Of a stretch of 63,555 nucleotides of DNA, positions 1 through 55,512 are shown in pieces. The stretch is taken from the IMG/VR virus record IMGVR_UViG_3300004806_000026, positions 1-63,555 of that record; one strand, written 5' to 3'. The notes below the pieces were generated by a model. The model had not been told where the DNA came from. It was given only the letters and a program-made list of their open reading frames with translations, and made no database searches. The stretch is from a virus (lineage: Duplodnaviria > Caudoviricetes). The translations under genes were made by a program, and so were the position numbers. Numbering within the stretch: the first letter of the stretch is position 1; the number at the start of each line of letters is the position of its first letter.

Positions 1-42
1 TTTATACCAAGCGTTTGAAGCCAAGTTGAAGGAGCGCAACAC

Positions 43-183: not shown

Positions 184-293
184 ATGAAATATTAGATCTT
201 ATTTTATTAGTAGGTGTATTGAGCATAGGCGCAATATGGATTACTGCGGTGTTTTGTTTTATCGTGATGGTGATAGGAGGGTTTGATGACTGA
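180..293 (+). CDS. small membrane peptide (37 aa)
   Basis: Translated by hand (MNEILDLILLVGVLSIGAIWITAVFCFIVMVIGGFDD); AAGGAG RBS; one hydrophobic segment. Confidence 0.6.
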   Translation: MNEILDLILLVGVLSIGAIWITAVFCFIVMVIGGFDD

Positions 294-594
294 CGGCGGA
301 AAAGGGTCTAAACAAAGACCAACAGATCATAATAAGTTTGCAAGTAATTTTGATTTAATTTTTAGGAGTAAACCAATGGACGAAGAAACAAGAGAGTTAG
401 ATTTACAACTTGGTGATGCACTAGCAGAACTAAACTTATACAAAGATGCAATTAACGAAGCTAATGTTATATGCCAAGATGTAGATCATGGGCGATACGG
501 CGATGCGCTTGTGCACGTACAAAAATTTTATGCGAAGGTTGAAGCAATACGTCAATACAAAGCTAAGTACATTGACATGGATGGTAGATGCTAA
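286..594 (+). CDS. hypothetical protein; possible second in-frame start at 376
   Basis: ORF track; AGGAGG before 286 and AGGAG (364-368) before ATG 376. Confidence 0.65.
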   Translation: MTDGGKGSKQRPTDHNKFASNFDLIFRSKPMDEETRELDLQLGDALAELNLYKDAINEANVICQDVDHGRYGDALVHVQKFYAKVEAIRQYKAKYIDMDGRC

Positions 595-767
595 TGATAG
601 AAAAGATTAACACGTTTGAGAGTAGGCGTGGCGAAGAGCGAGGTAAGATCCGAACAATACATAGAATAATCTATCGGTGTTCGGATTGTGGAAAGATGTT
701 TAGCTCTAAAGAAGAAACGGAGACGCACGACCATAAGGACAAAGAAGATGCCAAGACCCAAAAGTGA
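594..767 (+). CDS. small C2H2-like zinc-finger protein (57 aa)
   Basis: Translated by hand: YRCSDCGKMFSSKEETETHDH; TAATG coupling to the previous stop. Confidence 0.6.
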   Translation: MIEKINTFESRRGEERGKIRTIHRIIYRCSDCGKMFSSKEETETHDHKDKEDAKTQK

Positions 768-942
768 CATAACAGATGGTGTATATGTAGGTGTACGAAT
801 GACTAAAGAACAACGAGAAATGTTTCAAGACATAGGAGGTGCAGAATGGTTAAGAAATTACCTAAACAGACAGATAAGGTCAGAGGAGATTCAACTTGGC
901 CTTTCCCCACAAAACTCCTTACTCAAGAACCAAAAAAAGTAA
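748..942 (+). CDS. small putative DNA-binding protein (ribbon-helix-helix-like)
   Basis: MPRPKS...VYVGVRMTKEQREMFQDIGGAEWLRNYL gives a beta-strand-helix-helix pattern; ATG 748 preferred over 688. Confidence 0.5.
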   Translation: MPRPKSDITDGVYVGVRMTKEQREMFQDIGGAEWLRNYLNRQIRSEEIQLGLSPQNSLLKNQKK

Positions 943-985
943 AACGTAAGAAAGTAGATACAACACAATATGAAGGGGCGTTATT

Positions 986-1216
986 TTGAATGCGGATGAT
1001 AAACAAGTTGGTGGCAACCACTATAAAGAAATGCCAGTGCAACCTTGGACAGTAATGGAAGCAGTGCTTACCCCCGAAGAATTTAGAGGGTTTTTGAAAG
1101 GCAACATCATCAAGTACTCTATGCGTGCAGGGCGCAAAGGTGCAACAGACGAAGATATAAACAAAGCATTTCACTACATTGAGAAACTTAATGAACTTAA
1201 TAACACTAGACTTTGA
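986..1216 (+). CDS. DUF3310 family phage protein
   Basis: QVGGNHY...GFLKGNIIKYSMRAGRKG...EDINKAFHY signature; TTG start. Confidence 0.8.
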   Translation: MNADDKQVGGNHYKEMPVQPWTVMEAVLTPEEFRGFLKGNIIKYSMRAGRKGATDEDINKAFHYIEKLNELNNTRL

Positions 1217-3023
1217 AACATATTATGAGAAGGCTACGTTTAGCTTAACCAAGCTGACGACCGAGGAGTATGTGCGTGACTCACGTTTTGAAGTAATTGG
1301 CGTAGCAGTCAAAGTAAACAACGAAGAAACTGAATGGGCATCTGGCCCGCGTGAGGAAATACAACAATGGTTAACATCTTTTCCATGGGATGATTCAATC
1401 TTACTGGCCCATAACACAGCGTTTGATGGTTTTATACTAAGTGAGCGTTTTGGTATTGTGCCTAAAGTCTATGCTGATACGTTATCTATGGGTAGGGCAT
1501 TGCATGGCGTTGAAGTAGGTGGCAGTCTAGGTGCGATGGCTGAACGCTATAAACTACAAGCCAAGGGTACAGAGGTTAATGAAGCCAACGGCAAGTACAG
1601 GCAAGACTTTACACCTGAACAACTTAGTAGGTACGGCGACTACTGTATCAATGACGTTGAGATTACCCATGCGCTATTTAGTCGTATGATGCACAACGGC
1701 TTTCCAAAGAAAGAACTTAAACTTATTGATCTTACTCTACGGATGTTTATTACGCCGAAATTAGAGTTAGACTTGACTCTACTTGAACAGCACTACGATG
1801 AGGTGAGAGACAAGAAGGCTAAGTTGTTACTGGATGCTGACATAACAGACTCGACACAACTTGCGTCTAATCAACAGTTTGCGGATTTACTTAGACTCTA
1901 CGGCGTTAGTCCTCCGACTAAGATAAGCGTAACCACAGGTAAAGAAACTTTAGCATTAGCTAAGAACGATGAGGCGTTTAAAGCTTTAGCGGAGCATCCC
2001 GATATACGAGTGCAGACTTTAGTTGCGGCGAGGCTAGGTACAAAGAGTACACTAGAAGAAACTAGGACAGAACGCTTTATTGGAATTGCCAAGCGTGGTT
2101 TGATGCCAGTGCCCCTGAAATATTATGCGGCGCATACTGGACGTTGGGGTGGCGGTGACAACTTAAACCTACAAAACTTACCAAGCCGAGGCGAGAACGC
2201 AGGGAAGTTAAAGAAGGCTATAAAAGCACCCGAGGGCTATGTCATCATAGACTCTGACTCCTCACAAATTGAGGCGAGAACACTTGCGTGGCTTGCCGGA
2301 CAGAACGATTTAGTTGAAGCATTTAGAAAGGGCGAAGATGTATACAAACTTATGGCATCGGCAATCTACGGTAAGAAAGCTGAAGAGATTACAAAAGAGG
2401 AGCGGTTCGTGGGTAAGACGACTATCCTTGGAGCGGGCTACGGCATGGGGTCGGAGAAATTTAAGAACCAGCTTAAAACTTTTGGTGTTGAAGTTGAGGC
2501 TGAAGAAGCAAAGCGAATTGTGCATACGTACAGAAGTACTTACCCACAAATTGTTTCTATATGGAAACAAGCTCAAGTCGCCTTACAAGCGTTAGCTAAT
2601 GGCTCTGTAATACGTTTAGGTAAAGAAGGCGTACTACAACTTGTACCGCTTGAAAAAGCTATACGACTACCAAGCGGACTCTTGATGCGCTATGACGACT
2701 TAAGAGCAACTAGGGATGAAAAAGGTGTTCAATATATGTACAAGACTCGTCGTGGATGGAATAAAATCTATGGCGGTAAAGTAATTGAGAATGTCTGCCA
2801 AGCTATTGCACGGTGTATCATTGGCGAACAAATGATTCGTATCGCTAAGAAGTATGATGTTGTGCTAACAGTCCATGATGCGATTGCTTGTCTTGCGAAA
2901 GTTGAAGAAGCTGAAGAAGCTAGGAATTATGTCGAGGAGTGTATGCGTTGGACACCCGACTGGGCTGAAGGCTTACCAGTAAATTGTGAATCCGGTTTCG
3001 GAGAATCTTATGGAGATTGTTAA
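1191..3023 (+). CDS. polA: DNA polymerase family A with 3'-5' exonuclease domain
   Basis: Exo I LDFET, Exo II HNTAFD, motif A DSSQIEAR, motif B RFVGKTTILGAGYG, motif C TVHDA. Confidence 0.95.
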   Translation: MNLITLDFETYYEKATFSLTKLTTEEYVRDSRFEVIGVAVKVNNEETEWASGPREEIQQWLTSFPWDDSILLAHNTAFDGFILSERFGIVPKVYADTLSMGRALHGVEVGGSLGAMAERYKLQAKGTEVNEANGKYRQDFTPEQLSRYGDYCINDVEITHALFSRMMHNGFPKKELKLIDLTLRMFITPKLELDLTLLEQHYDEVRDKKAKLLLDADITDSTQLASNQQFADLLRLYGVSPPTKISVTTGKETLALAKNDEAFKALAEHPDIRVQTLVAARLGTKSTLEETRTERFIGIAKRGLMPVPLKYYAAHTGRWGGGDNLNLQNLPSRGENAGKLKKAIKAPEGYVIIDSDSSQIEARTLAWLAGQNDLVEAFRKGEDVYKLMASAIYGKKAEEITKEERFVGKTTILGAGYGMGSEKFKNQLKTFGVEVEAEEAKRIVHTYRSTYPQIVSIWKQAQVALQALANGSVIRLGKEGVLQLVPLEKAIRLPSGLLMRYDDLRATRDEKGVQYMYKTRRGWNKIYGGKVIENVCQAIARCIIGEQMIRIAKKYDVVLTVHDAIACLAKVEEAEEARNYVEECMRWTPDWAEGLPVNCESGFGESYGDC

Positions 3024-3682
3024 TGATTACATGGTCGTACTCTAGCATCAAACTATTTGGGCAGTGCCCAAAGAAATATTATCACCTAAAGGTATTAAAG
3101 GATGTTGTTGAACCCCCTACACAGGCTACGGATTATGGACAGCAATTCCATGAAGCGGCTGAGTTCTATATCAAAAATGGTACTCCATTACCGGAACCAT
3201 TCAAATTCGCAAAGAATGCCTTGGATGGACTCAAATCCATGCCGGGTGAGAAGTTGTGCGAATTCGAGATGGCATTGACCGAAGGGCTAGAACCGTGCGA
3301 TTTTAACGATCCCAAACGGTGGTGGCGTGGGATAGCTGATTTGGTTATCCTAAATGGCGAAGAAGCGAGGATTTTAGACTACAAAACAGGTCGATCTGCT
3401 AAGTATGCGGACACAGGTCAGTTAGAATTGATGGCACTAGCCGTGTTTAAGCACTTCCCCCAAATCAAAAGGGTTAGGGCTGGGTTGTTGTTTGTGATTG
3501 CTAACGCTTTCATAAAAGATAGCTACGACTCTAGCAATCAGGACAAGATGTGGCTCAAGTGGATGAAGGAGATTAGCCGTCTCAAATTTGCCCATGAGAG
3601 TAATGTATGGAATCCTAGACCGAGTGGCTTGTGCAAGAAACATTGTCTTGTGTTAGATTGTTCACATAATGGAAGGAACTGA
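3023..3682 (+). CDS. PD-(D/E)xK Cas4-like exonuclease
   Basis: WSYSS...CPKKY at the N-terminus, RGIAD...LDYKTG, QLELMA, C-terminal CKKHCLVLDC cluster. Confidence 0.85.
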   Translation: MITWSYSSIKLFGQCPKKYYHLKVLKDVVEPPTQATDYGQQFHEAAEFYIKNGTPLPEPFKFAKNALDGLKSMPGEKLCEFEMALTEGLEPCDFNDPKRWWRGIADLVILNGEEARILDYKTGRSAKYADTGQLELMALAVFKHFPQIKRVRAGLLFVIANAFIKDSYDSSNQDKMWLKWMKEISRLKFAHESNVWNPRPSGLCKKHCLVLDCSHNGRN

Positions 3683-3683
3683 T

Positions 3684-4025
3684 ATGCCATACGTTAATAC
3701 ACCACGCCCTTATAAGAAGGAATACCAAGAGCAAAAAGCAAGAGGTGAAGAAGAAAGACGCATGGAGCGTCAACGTGCAAGACGTGCGATAGATAAAAAG
3801 TACCCCGACAAAAATAAGAATGGCGAGGCAGACATCAGAGAAGGTAAAGATGTAGCTCACGTCAAAGCCTTAGACAAAGGCGGTTCTAATAAGAACGGTG
3901 TATTCATCGAATCCGCAAGTGGTAACAGATCATTTAAGCGAGATTCAAAAAGTAACTTAGTTTCAGAGACCACAAAAAAAGAAAAAGGCGAAAAGAAACT
4001 AAGCAAAGTAATCAAGCTCAAATAA
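3684..4025 (+). CDS. small HNH-like protein
   Basis: KDVAHVKALDKGGSN...SGNRSF resembles the compact phage HNH motif. Confidence 0.55.
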   Translation: MPYVNTPRPYKKEYQEQKARGEEERRMERQRARRAIDKKYPDKNKNGEADIREGKDVAHVKALDKGGSNKNGVFIESASGNRSFKRDSKSNLVSETTKKEKGEKKLSKVIKLK

Positions 4026-4048
4026 GAAAAGAGCAACAGGAGAAATAA

Positions 4049-5599
4049 TTGCAAGTTATAGACAATAAGCTATTGCTTTTGAATTTAAAGAACCCGGGTA
4101 AAGTAACGACAGTAATTCCAAAGAGTAAAGTAATTCGTACACACGACACACATTCAGAGGTTGCCGTTAACTGGGGCTTAGATGAAGCACAGGTTTTAAA
4201 GAACCTACAAATAAAAAACATCCCATCACCTATCATGGGGCAGTACAACTGGCCTGGGTTGTATAAACCGTTTGATCACCAAAAAACAACGGCATCATTC
4301 CTTACCCTAAATCCAAGAGCATTTTGTTTGAACGAACAAGGCACAGGCAAAACCGGATCGGTTATATGGGCTGCCGACTACTTGATGAAGGTAGGACGTA
4401 TTAAGAGAGTATTGGTTATCTGCCCTTTGTCTATCATGGACTCGGCATGGAGGGCTGACTTATTTAAGTTTGCTATGCACAGGACGGTTGACATTGCTTA
4501 CGGTAACCGAGCCAAGAGAAAAGAAATTATCAATGGCGGTTCTGAATTTGTCATCATTAACTATGACGGTGTTGAGATCGTTGCAGAAGATATTATTAAC
4601 GGAGGCTTTGACCTAATCGTGATTGATGAGGCTAATGCCTATAAGAACGCCATGACGACTCGGTGGAAAACACTTAATCGACTTTTGAAACCAGACACTT
4701 GGCTTTGGATGATGACTGGAACACCTGCCGCCCAAAGTCCGGTCGATGCGTATGGTTTGGCTAAACTTGTTAACCCAAAGAATGTTCCCAAATTCTATAC
4801 CGCTTTTAAAGACATGGTAATGCACAAGGTAACGCAGTTTAAATGGGTTCCAAAAGCTAACGCCGACAAGGTTGTGTTTGAGGCGTTGCAACCGGCTATC
4901 CGGTTTACCAAGGCAGAATGTTTAGATTTACCTGAGATGACTTACGTCACAAGGGAGATTGAACTTAGCACGCAACAAAAGAAATACTACGAAATGCTCC
5001 GTAAACAACTTGTGGTGCAAGCATCAGGCGAACAAATTACGGCGGTCAACGCCGCTGTTGGGTTAAGTAAACTCCTGCAAATATCTTGTGGCGCAGTCTA
5101 TTCCGATACAGGAGAAACCCTAACCTTTGATATCAAGAATCGGTATAAAGTACTGCAAGAGGTAATCGACGAGACCAAGCAAAAGGTTCTTATCTTTGTG
5201 CCGTTTAAGAATACGATCAAGGTACTATCCGAAAAGCTCCATGCGGACGGTTATACCACGGACATCATTAGTGGTGACGTATCAGCAGGTAAACGAGCAG
5301 AGATATTCCATAGTTTTCAGACTACCCCTAACCCAAGAATCCTAATCATCCAACCTCAAGCGGCGGCTCATGGTGTAACCCTAACTGCGGCTGATACCGT
5401 TGTGTGGTGGGGGCCAACTCCGTCCCTTGAGATATATGCACAGGCTAACGCTCGGGTGCATAGAGCCGGACAACGCCATCCGGTTACGATTGTGAGGCTT
5501 CAAGGGTCTAATGCTGAAAGACATCTTTACAAACTATTAGATAATAGAATAGACGAAAACACAAAATTAGTTGAACTTTACAAAAATCTACTTGAATAA
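4049..5599 (+). CDS. SNF2-family (SF2) DNA helicase
   Basis: QGTGKT Walker A, DEAN, TGTP, QANARVHRAGQ motif VI; TTG start after CAACAGGAGA. Confidence 0.92.
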   Translation: MQVIDNKLLLLNLKNPGKVTTVIPKSKVIRTHDTHSEVAVNWGLDEAQVLKNLQIKNIPSPIMGQYNWPGLYKPFDHQKTTASFLTLNPRAFCLNEQGTGKTGSVIWAADYLMKVGRIKRVLVICPLSIMDSAWRADLFKFAMHRTVDIAYGNRAKRKEIINGGSEFVIINYDGVEIVAEDIINGGFDLIVIDEANAYKNAMTTRWKTLNRLLKPDTWLWMMTGTPAAQSPVDAYGLAKLVNPKNVPKFYTAFKDMVMHKVTQFKWVPKANADKVVFEALQPAIRFTKAECLDLPEMTYVTREIELSTQQKKYYEMLRKQLVVQASGEQITAVNAAVGLSKLLQISCGAVYSDTGETLTFDIKNRYKVLQEVIDETKQKVLIFVPFKNTIKVLSEKLHADGYTTDIISGDVSAGKRAEIFHSFQTTPNPRILIIQPQAAAHGVTLTAADTVVWWGPTPSLEIYAQANARVHRAGQRHPVTIVRLQGSNAERHLYKLLDNRIDENTKLVELYKNLLE

Positions 5600-5619
5600 T
5601 GTAAAATTTGCTATATAAT
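5592..5619 (+). promoter_or_regulatory. sigma70-like promoter
   Basis: TTGAAT-16 nt-TATAAT at the helicase end, upstream of 5679. Confidence 0.5.
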
Positions 5620-5678
5620 ACTAGTACGGTAGTGAGAACAAAACAAGACCATTACCTTTTTTTCAACAGGAGAACATA

Positions 5679-6074
5679 ATGACAGAAAGCGTTTCATTGG
5701 AGAAGCTGACTCAAGTTTATATTAAGATGCGAGATAAGAAAGCTGAACTTGCAAAAGAACTTGAGGAACAAATAGGTAGCATTGATGAGAAGATGAAGAC
5801 CGTTAAGACGGCTATCTTAGATCAAATGAAAGACCTAGGCGTTGAGAGTATACGAACAGATTCCGGCACGGTGTACAGGACTACCAAGACTTTATACACC
5901 ACATCGGATTGGGAATCTATGCACAAGTTTGTTCTTGAGCATGGTGTACCTGAACTATTGGAGAAACGTTTGCAACAAACCAATACTAAGGTATTTTTAG
6001 AAGAGCATCCGGACTTACTACCGCCCGGACTTAATGCTACAACAGAGTATTCCGTAACCATAAGGAGAAAATAA
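5679..6074 (+). CDS. conserved phage replication-module protein (coiled-coil N-terminus)
   Basis: ORF with AACAGGAGA RBS inside the replication cluster. Confidence 0.7.
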   Translation: MTESVSLEKLTQVYIKMRDKKAELAKELEEQIGSIDEKMKTVKTAILDQMKDLGVESIRTDSGTVYRTTKTLYTTSDWESMHKFVLEHGVPELLEKRLQQTNTKVFLEEHPDLLPPGLNATTEYSVTIRRK

Positions 6075-6337
6075 TGGACGAAAAATTTGTCCCGATAGAA
6101 GATATTGCGGAGCATTTCGCTGTATCTGTATCGACCGTCCGTGCATGGATTCGGCAAGACTTAATTCCGGCTTTGAAGATTGGCGGTGTATACCGTTTTA
6201 AGATTTCAGATGTGGAGAGGACTTTGCGTGAACTCAATGGCGGTGATTTGCCAGTAGAAGAAAAGGATGGGAGCATTAGAGTGAAGGTTGATCCTCACCA
6301 ACTTGCCCTAGATTTTAGCCCCGAAGATGATGTTTAA
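6074..6337 (+). CDS. excisionase/MerR-like helix-turn-helix DNA-binding protein
   Basis: IEDIAEHFAVSVSTVRAWIRQDLIPALKIGGVYRF. Confidence 0.85.
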   Translation: MDEKFVPIEDIAEHFAVSVSTVRAWIRQDLIPALKIGGVYRFKISDVERTLRELNGGDLPVEEKDGSIRVKVDPHQLALDFSPEDDV

Positions 6338-6349
6338 CAGGAGAAAACA

Positions 6350-7228
6350 ATGAGCGAACTATCAATATTTAAAGGTGGACTGCCAGCCTATTTAAAAAAT
6401 GCAGTTGACGATACCACTAATGCGTTAGCCGGTGGTGAACTTGGAGCACGTCGTATCTCTATCAAGGGTGGTGTATTCCGTGAGTTTATCGGTGGTAAAG
6501 AGTACCGTGTGTCTGAAGAACGTGCCATGAATGTGGTCGTCATCAAAGCCGCACCGAAAGTTTCTCGTAAGTTTTATGCAGGATCTTATGTGGAAGGTGA
6601 AGTTGTTGCGCCCGCTTGCTGGTCAACCGATGGTATGCGCCCCGATGAAGGTGTGAAAGAAAAGCAGGCTTCTACCTGCATGAGCTGTCCACAAAACATT
6701 AAGGGTTCAGGACAAGGCGATAGCCGTGCTTGCCGTTACGAGCAACGCCTTGCCGTTATTATTGATGGTGAGATTGACAAAGAAGAAGTTTATCAGTTGG
6801 TATTACCGCCTACTTCTGTGTTTGGTGATGGTGAGAAAAAGAAACTCCCACTACAAGCATACGCACGTCACTTAAAAAGCAATGGCTTGCCCATTACCGG
6901 TGTAGTTACTGAGATGCGTTTTGATACTGCAAGTCCTACACCTAAGTTAGTGTTTAGTCCTATCCGTGGTGTGACCGAGGAGGAGTACGAAGTTATTCAA
7001 CGCCTAGGCAATTCCCAAGAAGCAACCTCTGCTATTACTATGACAGTAGCGCAGACCGATGGTGTGAAGAACAAACCCAAAGTATTTACATCTCTTGACA
7101 AGCCTAAAGCTGTTGAAAAAGTAGAAGCCGAAGAAGTAGAAGAACCTAAGAAAGCAGTAACGAAAAAAGCTACTGCAACTGCTGAACCAAACCTAGCCGA
7201 TTTAGTTGGTGAGTGGGACGACGTTTAA
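6350..7228 (+). CDS. probable single-stranded DNA-binding/recombination protein
   Basis: Position in replication module, Cys cluster (CWS, CMSCPQN, ACR), acidic aromatic C-terminal tail (GEWDDV). Confidence 0.55.
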   Translation: MSELSIFKGGLPAYLKNAVDDTTNALAGGELGARRISIKGGVFREFIGGKEYRVSEERAMNVVVIKAAPKVSRKFYAGSYVEGEVVAPACWSTDGMRPDEGVKEKQASTCMSCPQNIKGSGQGDSRACRYEQRLAVIIDGEIDKEEVYQLVLPPTSVFGDGEKKKLPLQAYARHLKSNGLPITGVVTEMRFDTASPTPKLVFSPIRGVTEEEYEVIQRLGNSQEATSAITMTVAQTDGVKNKPKVFTSLDKPKAVEKVEAEEVEEPKKAVTKKATATAEPNLADLVGEWDDV

Positions 7229-7236
7229 GTTAGTTC

Positions 7237-7260
7237 AGGGGGGTAACTCCCCCTATTCTT
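7237..7260 (+). terminator. GC hairpin, possible weak terminator
   Basis: AGGGGG-GTAACT-CCCCCT followed by ATTCTT. Confidence 0.4.
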
Positions 7261-7269
7261 AGGGTTTTT

Positions 7270-10101
7270 ATGAATACGGATTTCCTACAACAAGTCCTCG
7301 GGGACGGGGGATACTATTGTATTGTTGGTCTGAAAAAAGATTCGGACAAGCCTGTACAAAAGTTCTTCGAAAAGTTAGAAGATGCGGTAGCCGTAGCACA
7401 CAACCTTAAAGACAATGGCTATGATGCGTATTACGCATTGGCTACGTTTAATGATGGCAAGTCTAGAAAAACAGCAAATGTCAAACAACTTAAGTCGTTG
7501 TTCATTGACCTTGATTGCGGCCCTGGCAAACCATACGAAACACAAGCCGAAGCTATACAGTCTTTAAAACAGTTTTGTAAAGCTACAAGATTACCCAAGC
7601 CATCCCTTGTTAATTCGGGTGGTGGCATACACGCATACTGGGCGTTGACCGAAGCTATATCAAAAGATGAGTGGCTACCCTTGGCTGAGAAGCTAAAGAG
7701 CCTATGTGACGACAATGACCTCCATGCCGATCCAGTTGTAACCGCAGATTCGGTGCGGATTCTCCGCGTGCCGGATACGCTGAATTACAAGAATGATACG
7801 CCAAGACCTGTAACTTTACTGGGTTCGGCAGCGCCGCCCATTGAGTTAACCACAGTAAAAGATCTTATAGGAGAAGTAGTCCTATCTCGCAAGCCATATA
7901 TCCCACGAGGAGAAATGGATGAGGTAACTAAAGCTATCCTAGGTAATTACACCAATAGATTTAAGACCATACTGATCAAAACTGTTAAGGGCGAAGGTTG
8001 TCAACAGTTAGCGCACATCATTAAGAATCAAGCCACAATGTCTGAGCCGATGTGGAGAGCCGGACTGTCTGTAGCTAAGTTCTGTATTGATGCAGATAAA
8101 GCCATTGAGAAAATATCTAGTGGGCATCCTGATTATTCGCCTGAGATGGCGGATAGAAAAGTTAGAGGTATCAAGGGTGGGCCTTATACCTGTGCAAAGT
8201 TTGAAGAATTTAACCCCGGTGGTTGCGAAGGTTGTCATAACAGAGGGATCATCAAGTCCCCAATCGTGTTAGGTCGAGAAGTACAAGAAGCAAACGAAGA
8301 AGATAACATTGTCGAAGATATCCCTGCCGATGCGCCCCAAGGTCATACGCAGACTTACATAATTCCTAAGTACCCTGAACCGTACTTTAGAGGTAAGAAT
8401 GGCGGTATCTTTAAACGAGTGATAAAAGAAGATGATGAGATAGATGTATTGATTTACCATAATGATTTATACGTTACAAGGAGATTAGTTGATTCGGACG
8501 TTGGAGAAGCGGTAGTCGTTCGACTACATTTGCCCCGAGATGGGGTTAGAGAATTTACAGTGCCTCTGTCAGCCGTGACATCAAAAGAGGAGATTAGAAA
8601 ACATATGGCAATGCACGGAGTTGCCGTAATGAAGATGGACGAAATAATGTCATATATAACTACATGGGTTAATCATATGCAACACGATGCGGCGGCAGAT
8701 GTTGCAAGAAGACAGTTCGGATGGACGGACAAGAAGCATGAGGCGTTTGTTGTTGGAGACAAAGAGATCAGGGCAGATAGAGTAGACCATAACCCACCAT
8801 CAAGTGCTACGGCACAACTGTTTGGTGCGTTTACAACTCAGGGTACGTTAGACGCTTGGAAAGAAGCGATGGAGTTTTACAACCGACCCGGCATGGAACT
8901 GCATCAGTTTGTAATAGGACTTAGCTTTGGTTCTATCTTTACCGATTTTACTTCAATCAACGGAGCGTTACTGCACATCTTTAGTCCGGACTCAGGTATT
9001 GGTAAGACTACGGCTATGCTTGCAGGAGCTAGTATTTGGGGCAACCCAACCAAGTTAGTTCTCAAGGAAGCTGATACTGCGGCATCTAAGATGAACCGAG
9101 CCGAGCGTTACAAAAATATTTGTTTATGGATGGACGAGGTAACTAACTCACCCGCTAAAGACTTAAGTGATTTCGTCTATCAATATACATCAGGGTCACA
9201 ACGTAACCGTATGTCAGGTAGCGCAAACGAAGAGCGCACAAGAGGTGAGATGTGGCAACAATGCGGTATCAGTACCGGCAACACAAGCATCATGGAAAAG
9301 ATCAGCGTCCTCAAGGCTATGCCTAAAGGTGAAGCTATGCGTATCTTAGAAATCCGTGCGTATCCTATGCTTGGTTTAGTAAAAACAGATACGGACGAAC
9401 TTAGTGAAAAAATCTTAAGTAATTACGGTCACGCTTATCTGCCGTTCCTGCAATATGTAATGAACGATATTAAAGGCACGGAAGAAACATACAAGCAGAC
9501 ACAACTTAAGTTAGATAAGGCTTGTGGGTTTGGCCCGGCAGATCGGTTTCATTCTGTTATTGGCGCAGGGGGTATTAGTGGTTTACTCATGGCTAAGAAG
9601 GCAGGACTTATAAACTATAACGTATCGGCAGTGGTGCAGTGGTTACTAAATGCTGTATCTAGTATCAAGGAGCAGGTAAGCGCAATGGATGTCGATGCCG
9701 AGACCACACTTACAAACTTCTTAGCTGAAAACTACAACAACATTCTTCGTATTAAAAGCACGGATGATTCTAGGATTAACAACAACTCTGGCTTAGAGCA
9801 TTTAATTATTCCCGATGCAACGCCGAGAGTAGCCATGATCGCAAGGTATGAATACGACGTTAAGATGTTATTCATTTATCCTAAGCCACTTAAAGAATGG
9901 TGTACCAAACAACAGATAAATTATCAAGGGTTTGTTGACGCACTTAAGCGGGGCCGCACTAAGGCTAAGATTGGTAAGAAGCGTATGTCCAAAGGCACAC
10001 ATATGAATCTACCTTCGGCGGATGTATTGCATATTAACTGTGAGGAGTTTTTAGATGACGTACCCGAAACAGTGGACAAAGGGGTGGCAACTGAATCCTG
10101 A
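7270..10101 (+). CDS. primase-polymerase fused to a DUF927-type helicase
   Basis: N-terminal FIDLD / SGGGIHAYW / RILRVP primase motifs, Cys cluster CAKF..GCEGC, Walker A SGIGKTT, Walker B WMDE. Confidence 0.85.
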   Translation: MNTDFLQQVLGDGGYYCIVGLKKDSDKPVQKFFEKLEDAVAVAHNLKDNGYDAYYALATFNDGKSRKTANVKQLKSLFIDLDCGPGKPYETQAEAIQSLKQFCKATRLPKPSLVNSGGGIHAYWALTEAISKDEWLPLAEKLKSLCDDNDLHADPVVTADSVRILRVPDTLNYKNDTPRPVTLLGSAAPPIELTTVKDLIGEVVLSRKPYIPRGEMDEVTKAILGNYTNRFKTILIKTVKGEGCQQLAHIIKNQATMSEPMWRAGLSVAKFCIDADKAIEKISSGHPDYSPEMADRKVRGIKGGPYTCAKFEEFNPGGCEGCHNRGIIKSPIVLGREVQEANEEDNIVEDIPADAPQGHTQTYIIPKYPEPYFRGKNGGIFKRVIKEDDEIDVLIYHNDLYVTRRLVDSDVGEAVVVRLHLPRDGVREFTVPLSAVTSKEEIRKHMAMHGVAVMKMDEIMSYITTWVNHMQHDAAADVARRQFGWTDKKHEAFVVGDKEIRADRVDHNPPSSATAQLFGAFTTQGTLDAWKEAMEFYNRPGMELHQFVIGLSFGSIFTDFTSINGALLHIFSPDSGIGKTTAMLAGASIWGNPTKLVLKEADTAASKMNRAERYKNICLWMDEVTNSPAKDLSDFVYQYTSGSQRNRMSGSANEERTRGEMWQQCGISTGNTSIMEKISVLKAMPKGEAMRILEIRAYPMLGLVKTDTDELSEKILSNYGHAYLPFLQYVMNDIKGTEETYKQTQLKLDKACGFGPADRFHSVIGAGGISGLLMAKKAGLINYNVSAVVQWLLNAVSSIKEQVSAMDVDAETTLTNFLAENYNNILRIKSTDDSRINNNSGLEHLIIPDATPRVAMIARYEYDVKMLFIYPKPLKEWCTKQQINYQGFVDALKRGRTKAKIGKKRMSKGTHMNLPSADVLHINCEEFLDDVPETVDKGVATES

Positions 10102-10288
10102 TGGGGTTCCAATAAACGTAAACTGGGATGCCTTTGTTGTAGGGGCATCACTATTTATACCGGCAATTAATTTGTCAGCTTTGAATAAACAAATGCAAAT
10201 CGTTGCAAAAGATAACAACCTAAATCTTAAAGGGGCGCAACGAATTGAAGCTGGAAAACTAGGGATGCGCTTTTGGAGAATTTTGTGA
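10055..10288 (+). CDS. hypothetical protein
   Basis: ORF overlapping the primase end; last gene of the + strand operon. Confidence 0.6.
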   Translation: MTYPKQWTKGWQLNPDGVPINVNWDAFVVGASLFIPAINLSALNKQMQIVAKDNNLNLKGAQRIEAGKLGMRFWRIL

Positions 10289-10296
10289 TATTATTC

Positions 10297-10372
10297 ACTT
10301 GCAACTCTCCTGTTGTCATTTCGTTGCCTCACTAATAGGCTTTACCCCCCGACTATGTTCGGGGGTTTTTTT
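10297..10372 (+). ncRNA. candidate small RNA carrying the anti-RBS sequence UCUCCUGUUG
   Basis: Extended -10 TGTGATATTAT (10284-10294) upstream, GCAAC/GTTGC stem around TCTCCTGTTG, intrinsic terminator at the 3' end. Confidence 0.5.
10346..10372 (+). terminator. Rho-independent terminator of the replication operon
   Basis: CCCCCGA-CTATGT-TCGGGGG followed by T7, at the junction of convergent operons. Confidence 0.85.
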
Positions 10373-13300
10373 ATTCGCCGTCCATCTCTCTTTCGCTTTC
10401 TAAGATTTCTTTGCGCATTCTAGGACTAAACCTAACCCCATGCACCATCTCTTTAGTCGCACGATCTTGAGCCTTCTTAGACTTAGCCAATATATCGCTG
10501 ATAGTACCGCCGTTAATACCAAGTCCAGGGTGTTTCTCACCCAACTTAAGTAGCGCATCTCTATCTGCGTTTGCGCCTTCAGTATCACCTTTTCGCATAG
10601 CAAGATAATAACGAGCCTTAAGTTTTGAAGCCTTGGTAGATATAGCTTTATCTATACCTTTTTCTTTGGCATTGATTTCTAACTGTCTTGTGTAATCGGC
10701 AGGGGCAAAACCAAATGATTGAGCCAGTGCATTCCATGCGCTAATCTCTCCGGTAATTGGATCACCACGAAGTGTATTTGCACCTTCAAAGAAATACCGA
10801 CCGCCTTTGAGTATGTTGCTTGGTAAAGAAGGTACTAAATCTTCTAAGCCACGTTCAACATTACCTTCCGATATTTTGCTCATACCTCGACCGATACGCT
10901 CACCAATACTAAGCACAGGGCCGCCTATAGCTTCAAGAATTTGATCTTTAAATGTTGTGCCGGATCCCCCTGCTTTGTTATCTCTAACAATAAGATCGCT
11001 TAAGCCAATACGACCGGCAATAGATAGGTTAGTAAAGTACTCTAGTGGACCTTTATATAAGAACTCACCCAAGTGCTTACGAGTAACTGTATCCAAGTCA
11101 TCGTCGTCATCATCACAGAATAATGAATAGACCATAGCCGCCGCACCAAACATTGGCAAGCCTTGAGCACCAGCCATTAAAGCAGTCATACCCACAATAC
11201 CGCCTAGCTGTCTCCATGCGGCTTTTTTCATTTCGGGGGTTTCGCCGTTGGTAGCTTCTCTAAAGGCTTTCATCAACATATAGTACTGAGTAACGCCGTA
11301 ACTCTTGTACATAAACATTAATTTACCAAGACCACTTTGTGCAATCCTTGGCGCCGCAGCTGCAGACGTACTACCGTTAAGTAATTGTGCTGTGTATACG
11401 GCATGGTTAGCTGCCTGTTCTTCAGCGGCTTCACCTGTAATACCTTGTTTATTAAGTTTAGCTAACTCCAAGTTATATGTCGCAAGCATAGTTACTTCAC
11501 GGTTCATACGTTCTGTCTGTGCAAACATCCAACCAGATGCGGCATTGAGTTTAGCAAGGAACCCTGTACGAGTATCCCCAGTCAACATTTCATGCAGTTG
11601 AGAACGACCGATCTGTCCACGCTCACCTAGTACTCTAATAAAGGTAGCATACTTTTTACCGATTTTAGAGTCAGGCGCATAGTTGGCGATTGACCTTTGT
11701 ACATCTAACTTAGTAGTCTTGCCTTCACCACCAAGCAGTTTAGTAGTTGCTTCTGAGCCGCTACCCATAAATAGTTTAGACGCTTCTCCAATAGCCGCCG
11801 CAATATTAGCATCTTTGTAATGTGCTTTTAGGTACGGAGCTACTATCATCGGAACTTGAGCTAAGTTAACTAAAGCTGAAGATACGTTAAAACCTAATGT
11901 GTAGTTATACACTGCTGAAGACAGTATGTTTCCTACGGAACTTTTCTTGGGGTTAAGAATATAATCCAAACGCTTATGGAATTCGTCGTAATATGCTTTC
12001 TCAAGTTGGTTATTTGTTGAACGTCCTTCAACTTTACCTCTACCTATGTCGTCCACAAAATCACGCATATTATCAACCACACCACTTATTTGTGGGTTGA
12101 ACTTCATACTAGCTACCTGATGGATAGTACTGCGTATCTTATTCTCAAATACGCCAATAGAATCTTCTAAGAAACCAGCACGGTTGTTACGTTTTTGAAA
12201 TGACTTAGCAAATGCAGTTTCGGGTAGCGTACTAATAAATAGACGCATAATTTCGTCAGTGTTCTTGTCGTACAGCGCACTGTCTTCTGTACTTAAATTC
12301 TTTGGTTTATTAGCTTCAAGACTTTGCAATACTTCATTAACAAACGAACCAGACGGCGCACGGCGGTAATCAACTTCCGCTAACTGCGAGTAAGGTCTTA
12401 TATCTGTACCACCTAGTTTTTGCAGTTCCTCTATTCGAGCAGAGCGTTCGAGTTCAGTTTTAAACGCTTCATAGCCAGGTTGCGGTCTGTCATACTTATC
12501 TTTATATTGATATGCCAACCAGTAATCACCTTCACGACCAAGCGCAAAGTAAGGATCAATCACACCCTGCTTACGAAGTTTATCCATGATCTCTGTTTTA
12601 AAAGAGAACTTATTTTCTTTGGATAGATTCATACTATCAATGCGTTCTTGGATGACATTGCCAATCTCTTCGTACATACCCTTGTACGCATCACGCATTG
12701 TTTTATAAAGATTTTGCCAAACGGGATTTAGTTTTTTATATTCGGCATTGAGCTTATCCCAATCTTCTTCTAACCTGTTACCACTACTGTCTAATTTATC
12801 TGCGTATTCAGAACGAGGTTTTGTAGGATCAACCCCTGCAATAGTAGACTCATGTACAACAGTATTAAAACTATCTCTTTGCTCGGGTTTAGCTTTGATT
12901 GCTTTCTTAGCTTCCGCAACAACTGCATCAGCTTCGTTGTTTAATTTTTTCTTGTACCCATCTTTTTTATCTATCGTAGTGTTTAGCTTACTACCAAGAC
13001 CGTTTAAAAGAGGGTCGGCAATTTCGCCCATAGCGTGCATGGGTAAGAAAGCAAACGTGTTCGATCTAACTGTTGAGTTGCCATTTTTAATTAATTGACT
13101 TAACGCAGCTTTTTGTTTCAAGTCTATATTAGGAACGCTAGTAATTACTTTATCTATACGGCTAATAAATTGGTTTGTTTGTTCCGGTGTTTTAATAGCG
13201 TATAAAGACCCGGCATCTCTGTATGTAGGCGCAGGAGAAATAATAGTATCAATCAGTCTATCAGCCTGGTCAAATGCAGATTCAAGTTTCTTAGGCTCCA

Positions 13301-16300
13301 TACCAACCATACGGCGCAGGAAGTTACCAATGATACGCACGAACCGATCCCATGCAGAATGTTTTTGACCGTCTGGGTTAATAGACTTGAGCATTCCTCG
13401 GAATTCAGGATTTGCTTTAGCTTCGGCTACGAACTCTTGTAAGTTTGTAGATCCATATGCAGTTGGAATACTATCCTTTACTTTGTCGAATAGTTGTTGT
13501 AGCTGACGTGTTACTGGATGATTTGGGTCATCCAATACATGAGATGTTGCAGCGTGTCCTGATTCATGTAAAAGTACATGAGAGTTTAAGCCGGTTACAG
13601 AGTCAAGCTTAATCGTATTCGTTTTAGGATCAAACAGTCCTGCAACGGGTTTACCAGATTCATCTTTTAAGTTATCAACAACTTGTAGTTTAGTATCCGC
13701 GTTTACTTGGGCAAGTTGTGTTGCTAACTTAGATGTAAAACCATCTGACTGCGAGGCTAACAAGTTAAGGGCTGTCGTAAGATCACCATTCTCTAACGCA
13801 CTAATGATTACTGGATGCAGCATGTTGCTAAGCTTAGAAATAGCGTCTTGTCTTAAATTAAGACCTTCACGTTCGTCTTCCTGCCTTTGCAAGTAGTCAT
13901 CTACGGTTTCATCAGCACCCATGCCAAAGTAAACTCGGCCTAGCGTATCTACAATGTCTTGACTGTTTTTATTTACTTTCTCAAAGTATTTAAGCATATG
14001 GTCAAACTCTTTTACAGAGTCTTCGCTTAAATTAGAACGAATCCAGTCAGATGCAAGTTTAGCGTTTGCACCATTCATACCCTTAAAGAACTCGGCTTCA
14101 ACAAGCGATTCGCCAGTAGATCTAAATTGCGGAGTATCATTAACTAGATCAAAAGAAATATTAAATAGTCCATCAATGATGCGTGGCATTTTCTTAAAGT
14201 AAGTTTGCGCCGCACGTTCTGCAGGGGACTGTTCTTTTTTATTAAGTATTACACCTGCAACAGCAATATGATCATCGTCGTTTTTAACATCGTTTCTAAA
14301 GAAGTTTGTATACCCACGTTTAATAGTTTCGACTAAACCTTTGGGTGGTTTAGCATTTGGGTTAACGCTTTCTTTTTCTTCAATAGACTTTTCAATCTCA
14401 TCAAACGCACTAGACTTTATATCTTTAACAGCTCCACGAGCAGCTTGTTTTTCAGTCTTTGGGGCAGGGGTAGTCGTAGCAGTAGGCTTACTAGCTTTCT
14501 TTGCTGGTTTGGTTTTAGCTTCACCTTTAGGTTCCTCATCTAAATAAGCGTGTTCAGGAATCTCTGGTTCTTTAATTTCTGCAGGAGCTTCAGCTTTAAC
14601 TTCTTTTTTCTCTAATGTACTTGACTCATTAGCTTTTCGCTTTGCAGGTTTATTAGCAGGTGGCTCACTAGATACCACTGTTCCTGGTTTAGATTTTTCA
14701 ACTCCTCCGGCGGGTTTAGGTTCTGGCTTACTAGGTGTTGAAACGCTTGTTCCAGTTGCGGGAGTGACAGGTCTAGACCCAGTTCGTTTGGATGGTTCGG
14801 CACGTTCTGCTCCTTTTGCGATACCACCTTTAGGTCCAAAGAGTGGCTGTTGGGTTGCCAAGTTCCTAAACGCTTTCATTGCCACACCTTCAATTGCTTG
14901 CTTGGTGGACGCAGATAGGTTGGGGTTACTACGCACACTAACTAATACGTTTGCGACCTGTTGTTGGTGTTCAGGATTAGCTAAGTCTTTGTTAAGAAGT
15001 TGTTTGTAAAAACCAGATTGTTTAGTCAGGCCCGTACTATTTAAAGTATTGGCATCAAGCACAGTGCTTTCAGGTTGTGGTTCCGGCTCGGCTTCGGGTT
15101 CAACTTGTGCCGCACGCCGTTCTTGTTTGGTTGGATAGGGTACACCAGGCAGTTGTAGTTGTTTATATTCTCTCTGCCCTAATTTACCTGCCGGACCTTT
15201 TTCACCTTTTTCTTTGATGCCAGTGATTTCTGGTGTTAATTCGTTTTCAGGTGATGGAACTGTTTCAGGTGCTTCGTTCTTAGTTCTTTCTTCTTCCGCA
15301 AAAGCAGCTTTAACATCATTAGCGTGACCTATTAAACGTTTTTCAGTTTCAGTCAACTCTACATTAGCATAACCTGCATCACGCAACTTATCTTGGAATA
15401 GTTCGGCGGTATTAAGTAAATTTACATTCTCAAGCAATGGGTGCAATAAATCAAGGCGAGCCGCTTGTCTACGATCAATTTCACCTTTGGCTACTCGTGC
15501 ATCGGTTTCAGCAATAGCATCATTTAATTTAATTTGCGCTTCATCTTTTTTCTGTTGAATTGCATCTAATTGTGCTTGGTTTTCTGCAGCTACTTTTTGT
15601 TCTATAGCCACCTGCGGCCCAGTACGTGCGCCAGTTAAATCTAATTCTTGTTGTATAGGTTCAGCTTTGGGTTCTTCAAACGGCAACTCCATTTGTTGAG
15701 GTTGCGGTTCTTGTGTTTGTTCTTCTTGTATTGGCGCAAGTTGTTGTTCGCCAAGTTTAAAGTCGGGACGATATGCGTCCATAGCCGCTTGTTTTTTGGC
15801 TTCGCTTGCGGCTTGTTCTTGTTCGGCTTGATATTTTTCAACCGGAAATAGATCGGGTTGATACCCTCCAGGTGGTGGGGTGTATCCTAATTGGGGTGCA
15901 CCGGGAGGTTGTAATGCTTGTCTAGCTTGTTGTTTTGCTAATGCTTCTTGATCTTTACGATCTTGGATTTTTTGTTTGGTATCTGCAATCTTACGACTAG
16001 CTTCTACTGCAGCACCGGGAGCACCAAAGAACGTACCACCTACTGCACCTTTAACGGCAGAGGTAATAATGCTATCAATATTTTTAGTAGAGAAAAAGTC
16101 TTGTTTATCTCCCGCAATTTGAGATGCAAGAATTTGTAAAGCCTGTTGCCCGCTTTCAGTAAGAGATTCGCCACCCATTGTTTTAAGTAGCTCAACACCA
16201 AAAGCTTTCTTAAATGTGGGGGGTACGACAGTAGACTTCTCAAGCATACCTGCAGCAATACGTTTCTTACCCGCTTCACCTAATTGACTTAACATCTTTT

Positions 16301-17078
16301 CGGGTAAATATGTATCTAGTGCTGCAACCAGCGGACCAATTGTTAAAGCAATACCGGGGTGAAGTTCGCCTGTATCTTCATAGATACTTTGAAATACGTC
16401 AGGAACGTTAGTAGCTAAAGATGCGCCCCAAAGTCCAGTCTTAGAACCAATCTCTGCACCTTTTTTAGTTGCTGCCTGTCCAGCAGCATCAGCTGTAGTT
16501 CGTGCTAATAACCTATCAGCATATTCTTTACCGGCTTCTTCAGTCAAACCTTTTTTAGCTATAGTTTTAGCGGCTTGTTCTTTAACCGCTTTTTCTACGC
16601 CTTTTCTAGCGAGATATTTACCACCAATCTCACCAACCCCTGCGCCGCCAATAAAAGCTCCAATATCGGGAGCAAGTTCGCCAAGTGTTTCTGCGCCATA
16701 ACCTAATATGCTACCTGTTGGACCTGCTATATCTTTAACTGATTTATATGCAGTTGGGTTTTCTTCCTCTGCGGTTTGCATCCGTTGTTGGTATTCACCA
16801 AGCTTTTGCTTAGCGTATTCGTCTTTACCTAAGACAGATGCACCTAATGCCGGAAGCAATTCTGAAAATGTTCCTTTAGTACCTTCCCATCCACGTTTAG
16901 CGCCACCGGCAATAAGTTGCCCTATACCAAGTTCACGAGGGTCAGGTTGCCAATCCGCTTCTTGTTGCTTAGTCATAGCCGCTTGTTGCATAGCGGTAGC
17001 ACGAGCCATAATTTCATCTCTTGGCATAGAGTCAGGCATCATTACATCGCCGACCCCCGGTATAGTTACCCGTGGCAT
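10371..17078 (-). CDS. giant internal virion/DNA-ejection protein with zincin-like metallopeptidase motif
   Basis: 2235 aa at the end of the late operon; VLLHESGH (HExxH) followed by EFVAEA; mostly helical, low-complexity linker. Confidence 0.75.
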   Translation of the reverse strand: MPRVTIPGVGDVMMPDSMPRDEIMARATAMQQAAMTKQQEADWQPDPRELGIGQLIAGGAKRGWEGTKGTFSELLPALGASVLGKDEYAKQKLGEYQQRMQTAEEENPTAYKSVKDIAGPTGSILGYGAETLGELAPDIGAFIGGAGVGEIGGKYLARKGVEKAVKEQAAKTIAKKGLTEEAGKEYADRLLARTTADAAGQAATKKGAEIGSKTGLWGASLATNVPDVFQSIYEDTGELHPGIALTIGPLVAALDTYLPEKMLSQLGEAGKKRIAAGMLEKSTVVPPTFKKAFGVELLKTMGGESLTESGQQALQILASQIAGDKQDFFSTKNIDSIITSAVKGAVGGTFFGAPGAAVEASRKIADTKQKIQDRKDQEALAKQQARQALQPPGAPQLGYTPPPGGYQPDLFPVEKYQAEQEQAASEAKKQAAMDAYRPDFKLGEQQLAPIQEEQTQEPQPQQMELPFEEPKAEPIQQELDLTGARTGPQVAIEQKVAAENQAQLDAIQQKKDEAQIKLNDAIAETDARVAKGEIDRRQAARLDLLHPLLENVNLLNTAELFQDKLRDAGYANVELTETEKRLIGHANDVKAAFAEEERTKNEAPETVPSPENELTPEITGIKEKGEKGPAGKLGQREYKQLQLPGVPYPTKQERRAAQVEPEAEPEPQPESTVLDANTLNSTGLTKQSGFYKQLLNKDLANPEHQQQVANVLVSVRSNPNLSASTKQAIEGVAMKAFRNLATQQPLFGPKGGIAKGAERAEPSKRTGSRPVTPATGTSVSTPSKPEPKPAGGVEKSKPGTVVSSEPPANKPAKRKANESSTLEKKEVKAEAPAEIKEPEIPEHAYLDEEPKGEAKTKPAKKASKPTATTTPAPKTEKQAARGAVKDIKSSAFDEIEKSIEEKESVNPNAKPPKGLVETIKRGYTNFFRNDVKNDDDHIAVAGVILNKKEQSPAERAAQTYFKKMPRIIDGLFNISFDLVNDTPQFRSTGESLVEAEFFKGMNGANAKLASDWIRSNLSEDSVKEFDHMLKYFEKVNKNSQDIVDTLGRVYFGMGADETVDDYLQRQEDEREGLNLRQDAISKLSNMLHPVIISALENGDLTTALNLLASQSDGFTSKLATQLAQVNADTKLQVVDNLKDESGKPVAGLFDPKTNTIKLDSVTGLNSHVLLHESGHAATSHVLDDPNHPVTRQLQQLFDKVKDSIPTAYGSTNLQEFVAEAKANPEFRGMLKSINPDGQKHSAWDRFVRIIGNFLRRMVGMEPKKLESAFDQADRLIDTIISPAPTYRDAGSLYAIKTPEQTNQFISRIDKVITSVPNIDLKQKAALSQLIKNGNSTVRSNTFAFLPMHAMGEIADPLLNGLGSKLNTTIDKKDGYKKKLNNEADAVVAEAKKAIKAKPEQRDSFNTVVHESTIAGVDPTKPRSEYADKLDSSGNRLEEDWDKLNAEYKKLNPVWQNLYKTMRDAYKGMYEEIGNVIQERIDSMNLSKENKFSFKTEIMDKLRKQGVIDPYFALGREGDYWLAYQYKDKYDRPQPGYEAFKTELERSARIEELQKLGGTDIRPYSQLAEVDYRRAPSGSFVNEVLQSLEANKPKNLSTEDSALYDKNTDEIMRLFISTLPETAFAKSFQKRNNRAGFLEDSIGVFENKIRSTIHQVASMKFNPQISGVVDNMRDFVDDIGRGKVEGRSTNNQLEKAYYDEFHKRLDYILNPKKSSVGNILSSAVYNYTLGFNVSSALVNLAQVPMIVAPYLKAHYKDANIAAAIGEASKLFMGSGSEATTKLLGGEGKTTKLDVQRSIANYAPDSKIGKKYATFIRVLGERGQIGRSQLHEMLTGDTRTGFLAKLNAASGWMFAQTERMNREVTMLATYNLELAKLNKQGITGEAAEEQAANHAVYTAQLLNGSTSAAAAPRIAQSGLGKLMFMYKSYGVTQYYMLMKAFREATNGETPEMKKAAWRQLGGIVGMTALMAGAQGLPMFGAAAMVYSLFCDDDDDDLDTVTRKHLGEFLYKGPLEYFTNLSIAGRIGLSDLIVRDNKAGGSGTTFKDQILEAIGGPVLSIGERIGRGMSKISEGNVERGLEDLVPSLPSNILKGGRYFFEGANTLRGDPITGEISAWNALAQSFGFAPADYTRQLEINAKEKGIDKAISTKASKLKARYYLAMRKGDTEGANADRDALLKLGEKHPGLGINGGTISDILAKSKKAQDRATKEMVHGVRFSPRMRKEILESEREMDGE

Positions 17079-55495: not shown

Positions 55496-55512
55496 CAAAG
55501 TCTATTAAATAC

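Follow-up and report, generated by a model that had tools for sequence, protein, structure and literature searches.

The genome of a Caudoviricetes virus (IMG/VR record IMGVR_UViG_3300004806_000026), all 63,555 bp of which form the window analyzed here, carries a candidate small RNA (sRNA) gene in the 82-nucleotide (nt) gap where its early (+ strand) and late (- strand) gene blocks converge (10289 to 10370). We propose, with a probability of about 0.6, that this element is a conserved + strand gene whose product belongs to a new family of phage sRNAs and represses some of the early genes of the same phage. At the level of sequence, comparisons across related genomes establish its conserved anatomy and strand, its occurrence as a single copy, its complementarity to one class of start regions, and the co-variation of the two partners.

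The + strand block closes with a 77-amino acid (aa) open reading frame (ORF; 10055 to 10288, the last gene of the replication block in the ORF list), whose stop codon TGA (10286 to 10288) supplies the TGn of an extended -10 element with the hexamer TATTAT (10289 to 10294), as an earlier note on this DNA had claimed. From this putative promoter (10286 to 10294, +), recognized by its conserved bases, transcription would start at G10301, a conserved purine and the first base of the 5' hairpin. Hairpin 1, for which RNAalifold finds five pairs, joins GCAAC (10301 to 10305) to GTTGT (10312 to 10316) and exposes the loop UCUCCU (10306 to 10311), with an unpaired probability of 1.00 in RNAfold. The seed TCTCCTGTTG (10306 to 10315, +) lies between the 77-aa ORF and a convergent 2235-aa ORF and is, as had been noticed, the exact reverse complement of CAACAGGAGA, an extended ribosome-binding site (RBS) shared by early genes and referred to below as the tag. 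The stem GCAAC/GTTGC that the note had drawn around it (3' arm 10323 to 10327) gives way to the one described here, its fold being 4.3 kcal/mol worse (-17.5 versus -21.8 kcal/mol). Downstream follow hairpin 2 (GCCT/AGGC, 10326 to 10340, +; RNAfold) and the strong intrinsic terminator that had also been anticipated (10346 to 10372, +). This terminator, common to the early operon and the sRNA, has a stem of seven pairs, six of them G-C (10346 to 10365), and then a run of seven T (U tract 10366 to 10372). The predicted RNA would measure ~72 nt (10301 to 10372, +) and overlap the - strand 2235-aa gene (10371 to 17078, the last late gene, with an LPD39 domain) by 2 nt at its stop codon (10371 to 10372), which falls within the complement of the U tract.

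Relatives of this junction were collected through the 77-aa protein, which is itself conserved (63 to 96% identity among relatives, 31 invariant columns in alignment A1) and led to 62 viral and 29 metagenome loci, i.e., 91, or 92 with the window. A terminator-ended element follows the small ORF in 88 of the 91 related loci (89/92 with the window), represented by 48 distinct sequences; the exceptions are L068 and L070, which failed the T-run filter, and L084, which is without the element. Over the 48 distinct elements, the first T and the A of the -10 hexamer are present in 48/48 and its last T in 46/48, with the middle three bases varying, and these kept positions are invariant in the 38-sequence alignment of the main group (A2). 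The seventh base past the hexamer is G in 47/48 and A in 1/48, the six bases in between are highly variable, and 21 different combinations of hexamer, spacer and start base occur among the 38 sequences. This arrangement, TAnnnT followed by six variable bases and a purine, is what a -10 hexamer and a transcription start seven bases downstream would look like.

Alignment of the intergenic region in related phages, a check proposed by the earlier note, also finds the seed conserved: CTCCTGTT, which spans the loop and the 3' stem, is invariant in 38/38 aligned main-group sequences and present in 75 of the 89 loci. CTCC is kept in 47/48 and TTCTCC in 42/48 distinct elements, the loop reading UUCUCCU in most relatives and UCUCCU in the window. 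Folded one by one, nearly all of the 48 distinct elements form a hairpin at the 5' end and a terminator. Most of the main group has three hairpins, the terminator being preceded by hairpin 1, whose loop is UUCUCC or longer, and by a second hairpin. In distant members the 5' hairpin and the terminator persist together with a CU-rich stretch, and the GUUG extension is absent. A covariance model (R1) places one copy in each genome, always at this junction, matches that hold by construction because the model was built from the same sequences; no second copy of the element was found with it in 888,982 bases (53 of 56 sequence pieces).

Some variants of the element stand apart. In most relatives (e.g., L033:3245-3270 and L015:3222-3245), hairpin 2 (GUUCUC/GAGGAAC) contains a second UUCUC(C) paired with GAGGAAC or GAAGAAC, which by its sequence is a masked second copy of the motif resembling an anti-Shine-Dalgarno (anti-SD) sequence; the GCCU/AGGC hairpin 2 of the window lineage is unrelated to it. 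In L084, a 2443-nt metagenome contig, the small ORF runs straight into the convergent gene, and this locus looks like a natural deletion variant. In L068 and L070 (genomes G004 and G005), three to four tandem units of ~11 nt (TGGYGTTCAYT-like) lie between the -10 box and a CU-rich CAUUCUCCUAG, about 10 to 60 nt past the stop codon of the small ORF.

The pattern of change in hairpin 1 identifies the strand on which the structure acts. Its five pairs are formed in 98.9% of 187 alignment cells, a value that none of 500 shuffles reached (0/500) and that compares with 14 to 60% in slid controls. Twelve cells depart from the commonest pair: eight are G.U on the + strand, spread over three stem positions and equivalent to C.A on the - strand, two are double changes (A-U and U-A), and two are unpaired. 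The departures being G.U on + and C.A on -, the structure belongs to a + strand RNA. Other strand markers agree, since the terminator T run is found on + only (no T run follows the stem of the terminator hairpin on -) and the kept -10 bases fit + only. A cis-encoded antisense RNA of the sar/OOP type was considered and rejected: the predicted targets lie on the same strand (4034 to 6352 and 53781 to 61568), and the overlap with the opposite gene is only 2 nt. The - strand also bears a sigma-70-like site, ATGACA-18 nt-AATAAT (10/12 matches, 10319 to 10290), which overlaps the element and whose -10 is not kept in relatives.

The sequence to which the seed is complementary is strongly overrepresented in the window and confined to a particular context. 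There are nine exact matches to AACAGGAGA, against 0.40 expected (100 shuffles, largest count 2). Eight are on the + strand (4035, 5665, 6336, 53781, 56522, 57708, 58926 and 59844), each 14 to 16 nt ahead of an ORF start codon, and the single - strand copy (10306 to 10314) is the one in the junction gap; the variant AACAGGAGT at 61552 likewise precedes an ORF start. All these positions, reported previously as an extended RBS shared by + strand genes, proved correct. The two gene blocks differ accordingly in their start regions, with ACAGGAG in 9/31 on + versus 1/51 on -, and TAAGGA in 12/51 on - versus 3/31 on +. The same holds across five near-complete genomes, where ACAGGAG occurs in 34/188 + versus 2/244 - start regions, and TAAGGA in 9 and 40 of them, respectively. 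The previous statement that late genes mostly use TAAGGA is thus overstated. The idea of one RNA silencing a whole gene class stands insofar as the seed is antisense to a shared early tag, but the tag marks only a subset (9/31 + strand genes).

Nine start regions, all on the + strand, make up the predicted target set in the window. The SNF2 helicase (4034 to 4051; TTG start at 4049) offers CAACAGGAGA for 10 nt of pairing (duplex -21.4, net -14.5 kcal/mol), and is followed by the genes for a 131-aa DUF7307 protein (5664 to 5681), whose orthologue is the best conserved predicted target, and for a 292-aa protein (6336 to 6352; net -14.2 kcal/mol). The others are a 46-aa ORF with a tag match (53781 to 53798), a 374-aa AAA ATPase (56521 to 56540), a 390-aa DUF2201 metallopeptidase/VWA-like protein (57708 to 57725), a 298-aa protein (58926 to 58943), a 318-aa protein (59844 to 59861), and a 145-aa protein with the weaker tag AACAGGAGT upstream of its start (61552 to 61568). 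The 318-aa gene, with AACAGGAGAGT, provides the longest pairing in the window, the 11 nt already recorded for 59844 (net -15.6 kcal/mol). Net cofold energies range from -10 to -16 kcal/mol at the tagged sites, with medians of -7.6 for + and -5.2 kcal/mol for - start regions (P = 0.011). A second pairing arm had also been suggested, in which ACTTGCAA (10297 to 10304) would bind TTGCAAGT (4049 to 4056) at the SNF2 start. The complementarity exists, but as a functional arm it was rejected: most of it precedes the predicted start at 10301, and it is broken in a 97% relative without compensation. The SNF2 start remains TTGCAAGT in relatives G021 and G022, and the sRNA flank of G021 is altered at two positions with no compensating change.

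Some target neighborhoods have features of their own. The DUF7307 gene (5679 to 6074) has a match to the Pfam family of Pam3 gp33-like proteins (27.5 bits) and another to PHROG 13900, a group annotated "minor head protein", yet it sits downstream of the SNF2 helicase gene, among the replication genes. At 56538 to 58895, the tagged neighbors resemble a MoxR-type AAA ATPase and a DUF2201 metallopeptidase/VWA-like protein, i.e., an early ATPase-VWA pair. A palindrome, GTAGTC-N4-GACTAC (often ATGTAGTCGRYCGACTACAT), recurs 12 times in the window, where 0.05 copies would be expected (8512, 52246, 53062, 53170, 53748, 54360, 55616, 56485, 57679, 58897, 60667 and 62005). Most are within the 52- to 62-kb early region, the copy at 8512 is inside the primase-helicase ORF, and four sit 15 to 25 nt upstream of tagged RBSs. 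They could be hairpins for RNA processing or attenuation, or operators of a dimeric protein.

The analysis of complementarity beyond the SD-like core drew on 32 related records, whole or partial, with genes called by a simple ORF rule. When CTCC was held fixed and the 8+8 flanking bases were shuffled, the native flanks matched + strand start regions better at P<=0.004 in 11 of 16 genomes and at P of 0.01 to 0.03 in three more; late genes barely match the flanks. Perfect complements of at least 9 nt including GGAG occur in 8/31, 8/46, 6/29, 11/40 and 6/42 + strand start regions and in 0 to 1 on the - strand (window, 8/31 + versus 0/51 -; G003, 11/40 + versus 0/51 -). Distant genomes whose element is without GUUG (G004, G005 and G012) have no AACAGGAGA sites. 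G014 has one copy, outside start regions. The most persistent partner is the gene of 131 to 141 aa after the SNF2 helicase, whose complementarity reaches 10 to 14 nt in most lineages and extends to the start codon.

Loop and spacer variants change together, which is what the earlier note had asked of the seed and the early RBS motif in relatives: across 12 lineages, loop variants track spacer variants. Loops with CAACAU followed by UCUCC pair with GGAGAAUGUU over 14 nt (G002, G009, G013 and G032), and the form with a 2-nt deletion pairs with GGAGAGU (G006 and G007, both close relatives of G002). Similarly, CUCAU loops occur with AAUGAG spacers (G010 and G031), UUCAU with AAUGAA (G017), UUAU with AAUAA (G001), and UUCCAU with AAUGGAA (G011, G023 and G025). 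In a re-assignment test, in which sRNAs were shuffled among the genomes of 8 or 12 lineages and scored by two totals, the observed totals were reached by 192 and 140 of 40,320 assignments (8 lineages) and by 3 and 779 of 200,000 (12 lineages). These tests and the flank shuffle took the place of a cruder measure, the 3' extension averaged across every GGAG start region, which could not tell the lineages apart.

Several observations weigh against repression of the phage's own early genes by this RNA. The flank-shuffle test detected no excess complementarity in G012 (P = 0.51) and G014 (P = 0.08). A consensus scan found no -35 element for the + strand promoter, and it listed no + strand promoter because it requires both hexamers. 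The best net energy in the window belongs to a late gene (start 31433). The loop of the window lineage is 2 nt shorter, a deletion that leaves eight sites with 9 to 10 nt of pairing and a single site with 11 nt; moreover, pairing of the AGGAG core would fit host mRNAs too. In the re-assignment matrix, a genome's own sRNA is joint best in only 5/12 rows by summed length and 7/12 by the count of matches of at least 11 nt, and the start regions of the window fit the sRNAs of other lineages better (own 14 versus up to 23). The P values of the permutations overstate independence because the genomes are related. Finally, the sRNA could derive from an inverted copy of a start region, in which case the match could partly reflect shared descent or gene conversion.

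Other readings of the same element were weighed against sRNA-mediated repression of early genes. The element could be the plain 3' end of the early operon, its hairpins stabilizing the transcript ahead of the terminator and its CU loop kept as a site for a protein or ribonuclease (RNase), with no action in trans. Its position directly after the last early ORF, the terminator held in common and the missing -35 fit this. Nevertheless, we regard it as rather improbable, since it leaves unexplained the invariant TAnnnT at a fixed 6 nt from the first purine of the hairpin, the invariant 8-nt sequence of loop and stem, and the complementarity and co-variation of the flanks with start regions kilobases away. 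Marginally less credit goes to the possibility that the RNA is real but serves mainly to pair with host mRNAs or to bind a protein, the match to early phage genes being secondary because any strong AGGAGAA site pairs with the loop. The universally kept core is indeed (U)UCUCC, at the frequencies given above for CTCC (47/48) and TTCTCC (42/48), distant members dispense with the GUUG extension, and in G012 and G014 the matches to the genome's own start regions are not in excess. Yet the flanks beyond the core match the genomes' own + strand start regions in 11/16 genomes, and they co-vary with them.

The remaining alternatives locate the function outside a + strand RNA. The 23-codon GTG ORF pointed out previously on the - strand does exist, and the motif might be an RBS copy for this mini-ORF or a decoy in late read-through transcripts. 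The other eight copies of the motif are all RBSs, the GTG of the window is 16 nt from the motif start, the antisense frame is open in the window and in all six relatives examined, late transcription may continue through a hairpin without a T run on -, and there is the promoter-like site at 10319 to 10290. As a main explanation, however, the mini-ORF was rejected, and a function of the - strand in general appears very unlikely. Start codons in relatives lie at offsets of 9 to 18 nt and differ in kind: L004 has no well-spaced start, in an 88% relative the sole candidate is a TTG at offset 10, and the commonest loop type has an ATG at offset 9 and a TTG at offset 12, too near GGAG. The peptide, which ranges from 23 to 46 aa, would be read antisense to a conserved protein, on - the eight G.U cells of the stem become C.A, and the kept -10 bases fit + only, the - hexamer not being kept. 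Least credible of all is a DNA-level site, i.e., a protein operator or recombination site containing the motif by chance. The stem arms do form an inverted repeat, and the early region harbors 12 copies of another palindrome, but the conserved center is asymmetric, the stem changes obey RNA rules (G.U, not A.C), and the terminator and -10 geometry indicate a transcript.

Repression of early genes by the sRNA would proceed as follows. An RNA from 10301 to 10372 (+) would be transcribed from the -10-type promoter overlapping the stop of the 77-aa ORF and would stop at the terminator shared with the early/replication operon. Its 5-bp hairpin would display the UCUCCU loop, which resembles the ribosomal anti-SD sequence, and the loop together with the 3' half of the stem (UCUCCUGUUG) would pair with CAACAGGAGA in the start regions of some + strand genes, including those of the SNF2 helicase, the DUF7307 protein, the AAA ATPase and the VWA/metallopeptidase protein. 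Such pairing would cover the RBS and reduce translation, and perhaps mRNA stability too; because an exposed loop complementary to early-gene RBSs is involved, the sRNA probably lowers their translation. Late genes would escape, since their different extended site (TAAGGAG) pairs poorly. From these features we infer the use of the -10 box as a promoter, the start position (10301), in vivo pairing, and the direction and timing of the effect. The sRNA may then be made early and act as a brake, giving early protein synthesis the form of a pulse.

A fuller model, which we hold at somewhat short of even odds, can be sketched from this. From the start of infection, the sRNA might act as an anti-SD mimic that competes with ribosomes for the address tag AACAGGAGAAU of early and replication genes, shutting the tagged genes as it accumulates, while the ribosome-optimal UAAGGAG of late genes would not be held. 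It would thus be an RNA counterpart of T4 RegA/RegB that originated when the start region of a target was copied in inverted orientation, and that has since stayed matched to its targets throughout a large family of uncultured phages. Inspection of the - strand at 52050 to 52420 for a late promoter resembling the -10 box of the sRNA revealed nothing convincing. Within 10346 to 10373, the - strand stop codon of the 2235-aa gene lies opposite the sRNA U tract, and late transcription may read through because the terminator hairpin has no T run on -. The read-through RNA would be complementary to the sRNA over its whole length and might serve as a sponge for it or as a substrate of RNase III.

The genomic setting is that of a probably lytic phage with two opposed blocks. 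The + strand genes (1 to 10288 and ~52.4 kb to the end) encode a DNA polymerase A, the SNF2 helicase, a DUF927 primase-helicase and an AAA ATPase, and the - strand genes (from 52.1 kb down to 10371) encode terminase, structural proteins and the 2235-aa LPD39 protein. No tRNA gene was found in a search of the window phage. The product of the 77-aa ORF matched no Pfam or PHROG family, and a profile search found no relatives of it in bacterial genomes. The nearest isolate phages are, by sequence, distant: a megablast of 9000 to 11500 against phage records gave no match, the primase is closest to that of Pseudomonas phage Rollin (28.7% identity), and the large terminase shares 46 to 48% with Pelagibacter phages and 45.7% with Synechococcus and Planktothrix phages.

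Database searches likewise returned no established family. At gathering score, no Rfam 15 family matched the window or any of 20 relatives (0/20). The best sub-threshold match was the cyanobacterial sRNA PsrR1 (RF02701), covering the whole model (79 positions), and the likeness comprises UCUCC, a second CU-rich stretch and the terminator. This candidate was rejected, the window scoring 25.0 bits (E of 0.008 to 0.03) against a gathering score of 42; in relatives, one of ten matched (L015, 22.5 bits) and nine of ten gave no match. The 18-nt string of hairpin 1 has 21 matches in bacterial genomes, near a rough chance estimate, and none is accompanied by a -10 box or terminator. Ten of them are one conserved Chitinophagaceae/Sphingobacteriales locus (members L160, L161, L164, L165, L169, L172, L173, L175 and L177-L179), probably a coincidence inside a conserved gene. 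The searches of bacterial genomes with the 77-aa profile and the 18-nt string thus found no host homologue of the element.

The element shares traits with several host sRNAs. DapZ and MicL of enterobacteria are Hfq-dependent 3'-region sRNAs with a promoter inside the upstream gene, and the phage element resembles them in its putative promoter overlapping the end of the upstream coding sequence, a terminator shared with the operon and a short conserved seed. RsaE/RoxS and RNAIII of Firmicutes are sRNAs whose C/U-rich loops pair with the SD sequences of many mRNAs. The element shares with them a seed in a hairpin loop, pairing to the SD core and several predicted targets; unlike these host-encoded RNAs of different sequence, its predicted targets are the phage's own genes and its specificity would come from the flanks of the core. 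To our knowledge, few phage-encoded sRNAs are understood, and the control of sets of early genes through a start-region motif in phages has so far been only protein-based (T4 RegA and RegB). A full-text literature search found no phage sRNA acting on a shared early-gene tag.

As summarized in the available part of a 2025 review (PMC12197685), phage-encoded sRNAs come mostly from temperate phages or prophages, and those that pair with phage mRNAs hit single genes (ant, cII and Q). The c4 antisense RNA of P1/P7, as outlined there, is likewise a phage-encoded small RNA, but it acts on one mRNA (ant) in the immunity circuit of temperate phages (PMC12197685), whereas here there are up to nine tagged start regions in a probably lytic phage. 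Among the scanned tagged genes no antirepressor was found (an immunity region was not searched for), and several targets lie in the DNA-metabolism block; c4 and the element have no sequence or Rfam relation. In the same portion of that source, P22 sar and lambda OOP/aQ also appear as small phage RNAs that reduce phage gene expression by base pairing, yet they are cis-encoded opposite a single target (PMC12197685). The element has its predicted targets on its own strand, at distances of 0.4 to 20 kb, and so would act in trans. A parallel in logic is provided by T4 RegB and RegA, since PMC3014915 describes how many early mRNAs are inactivated, by way of a motif in their start regions, by a product that the phage makes early. 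There, GGAG is the sequence cut by RegB, with strong sites of the form GG*AGRAYARAA, and late messages escape (PMC3014915). These strong sites, as given there, resemble the GGAGAAUAA-like 3' part of the tag, and a RegB-like enzyme may act on the same tag. On the same account, RegB and RegA are proteins and the proposed effector here is an RNA, so the analogy is functional only.

If the proposed role is correct, the temporal control of phage gene expression would gain an RNA layer, in the form of a conserved sRNA that acts in trans on a group of the phage's own early genes through an extended RBS tag. Since the seed-and-tag pairs differ between lineages, this family puts natural compensatory variants on offer, and such pairs could serve as orthogonal translational switches. 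More broadly, networks of sRNAs and their targets would be inferable from metagenomic phage genomes alone.

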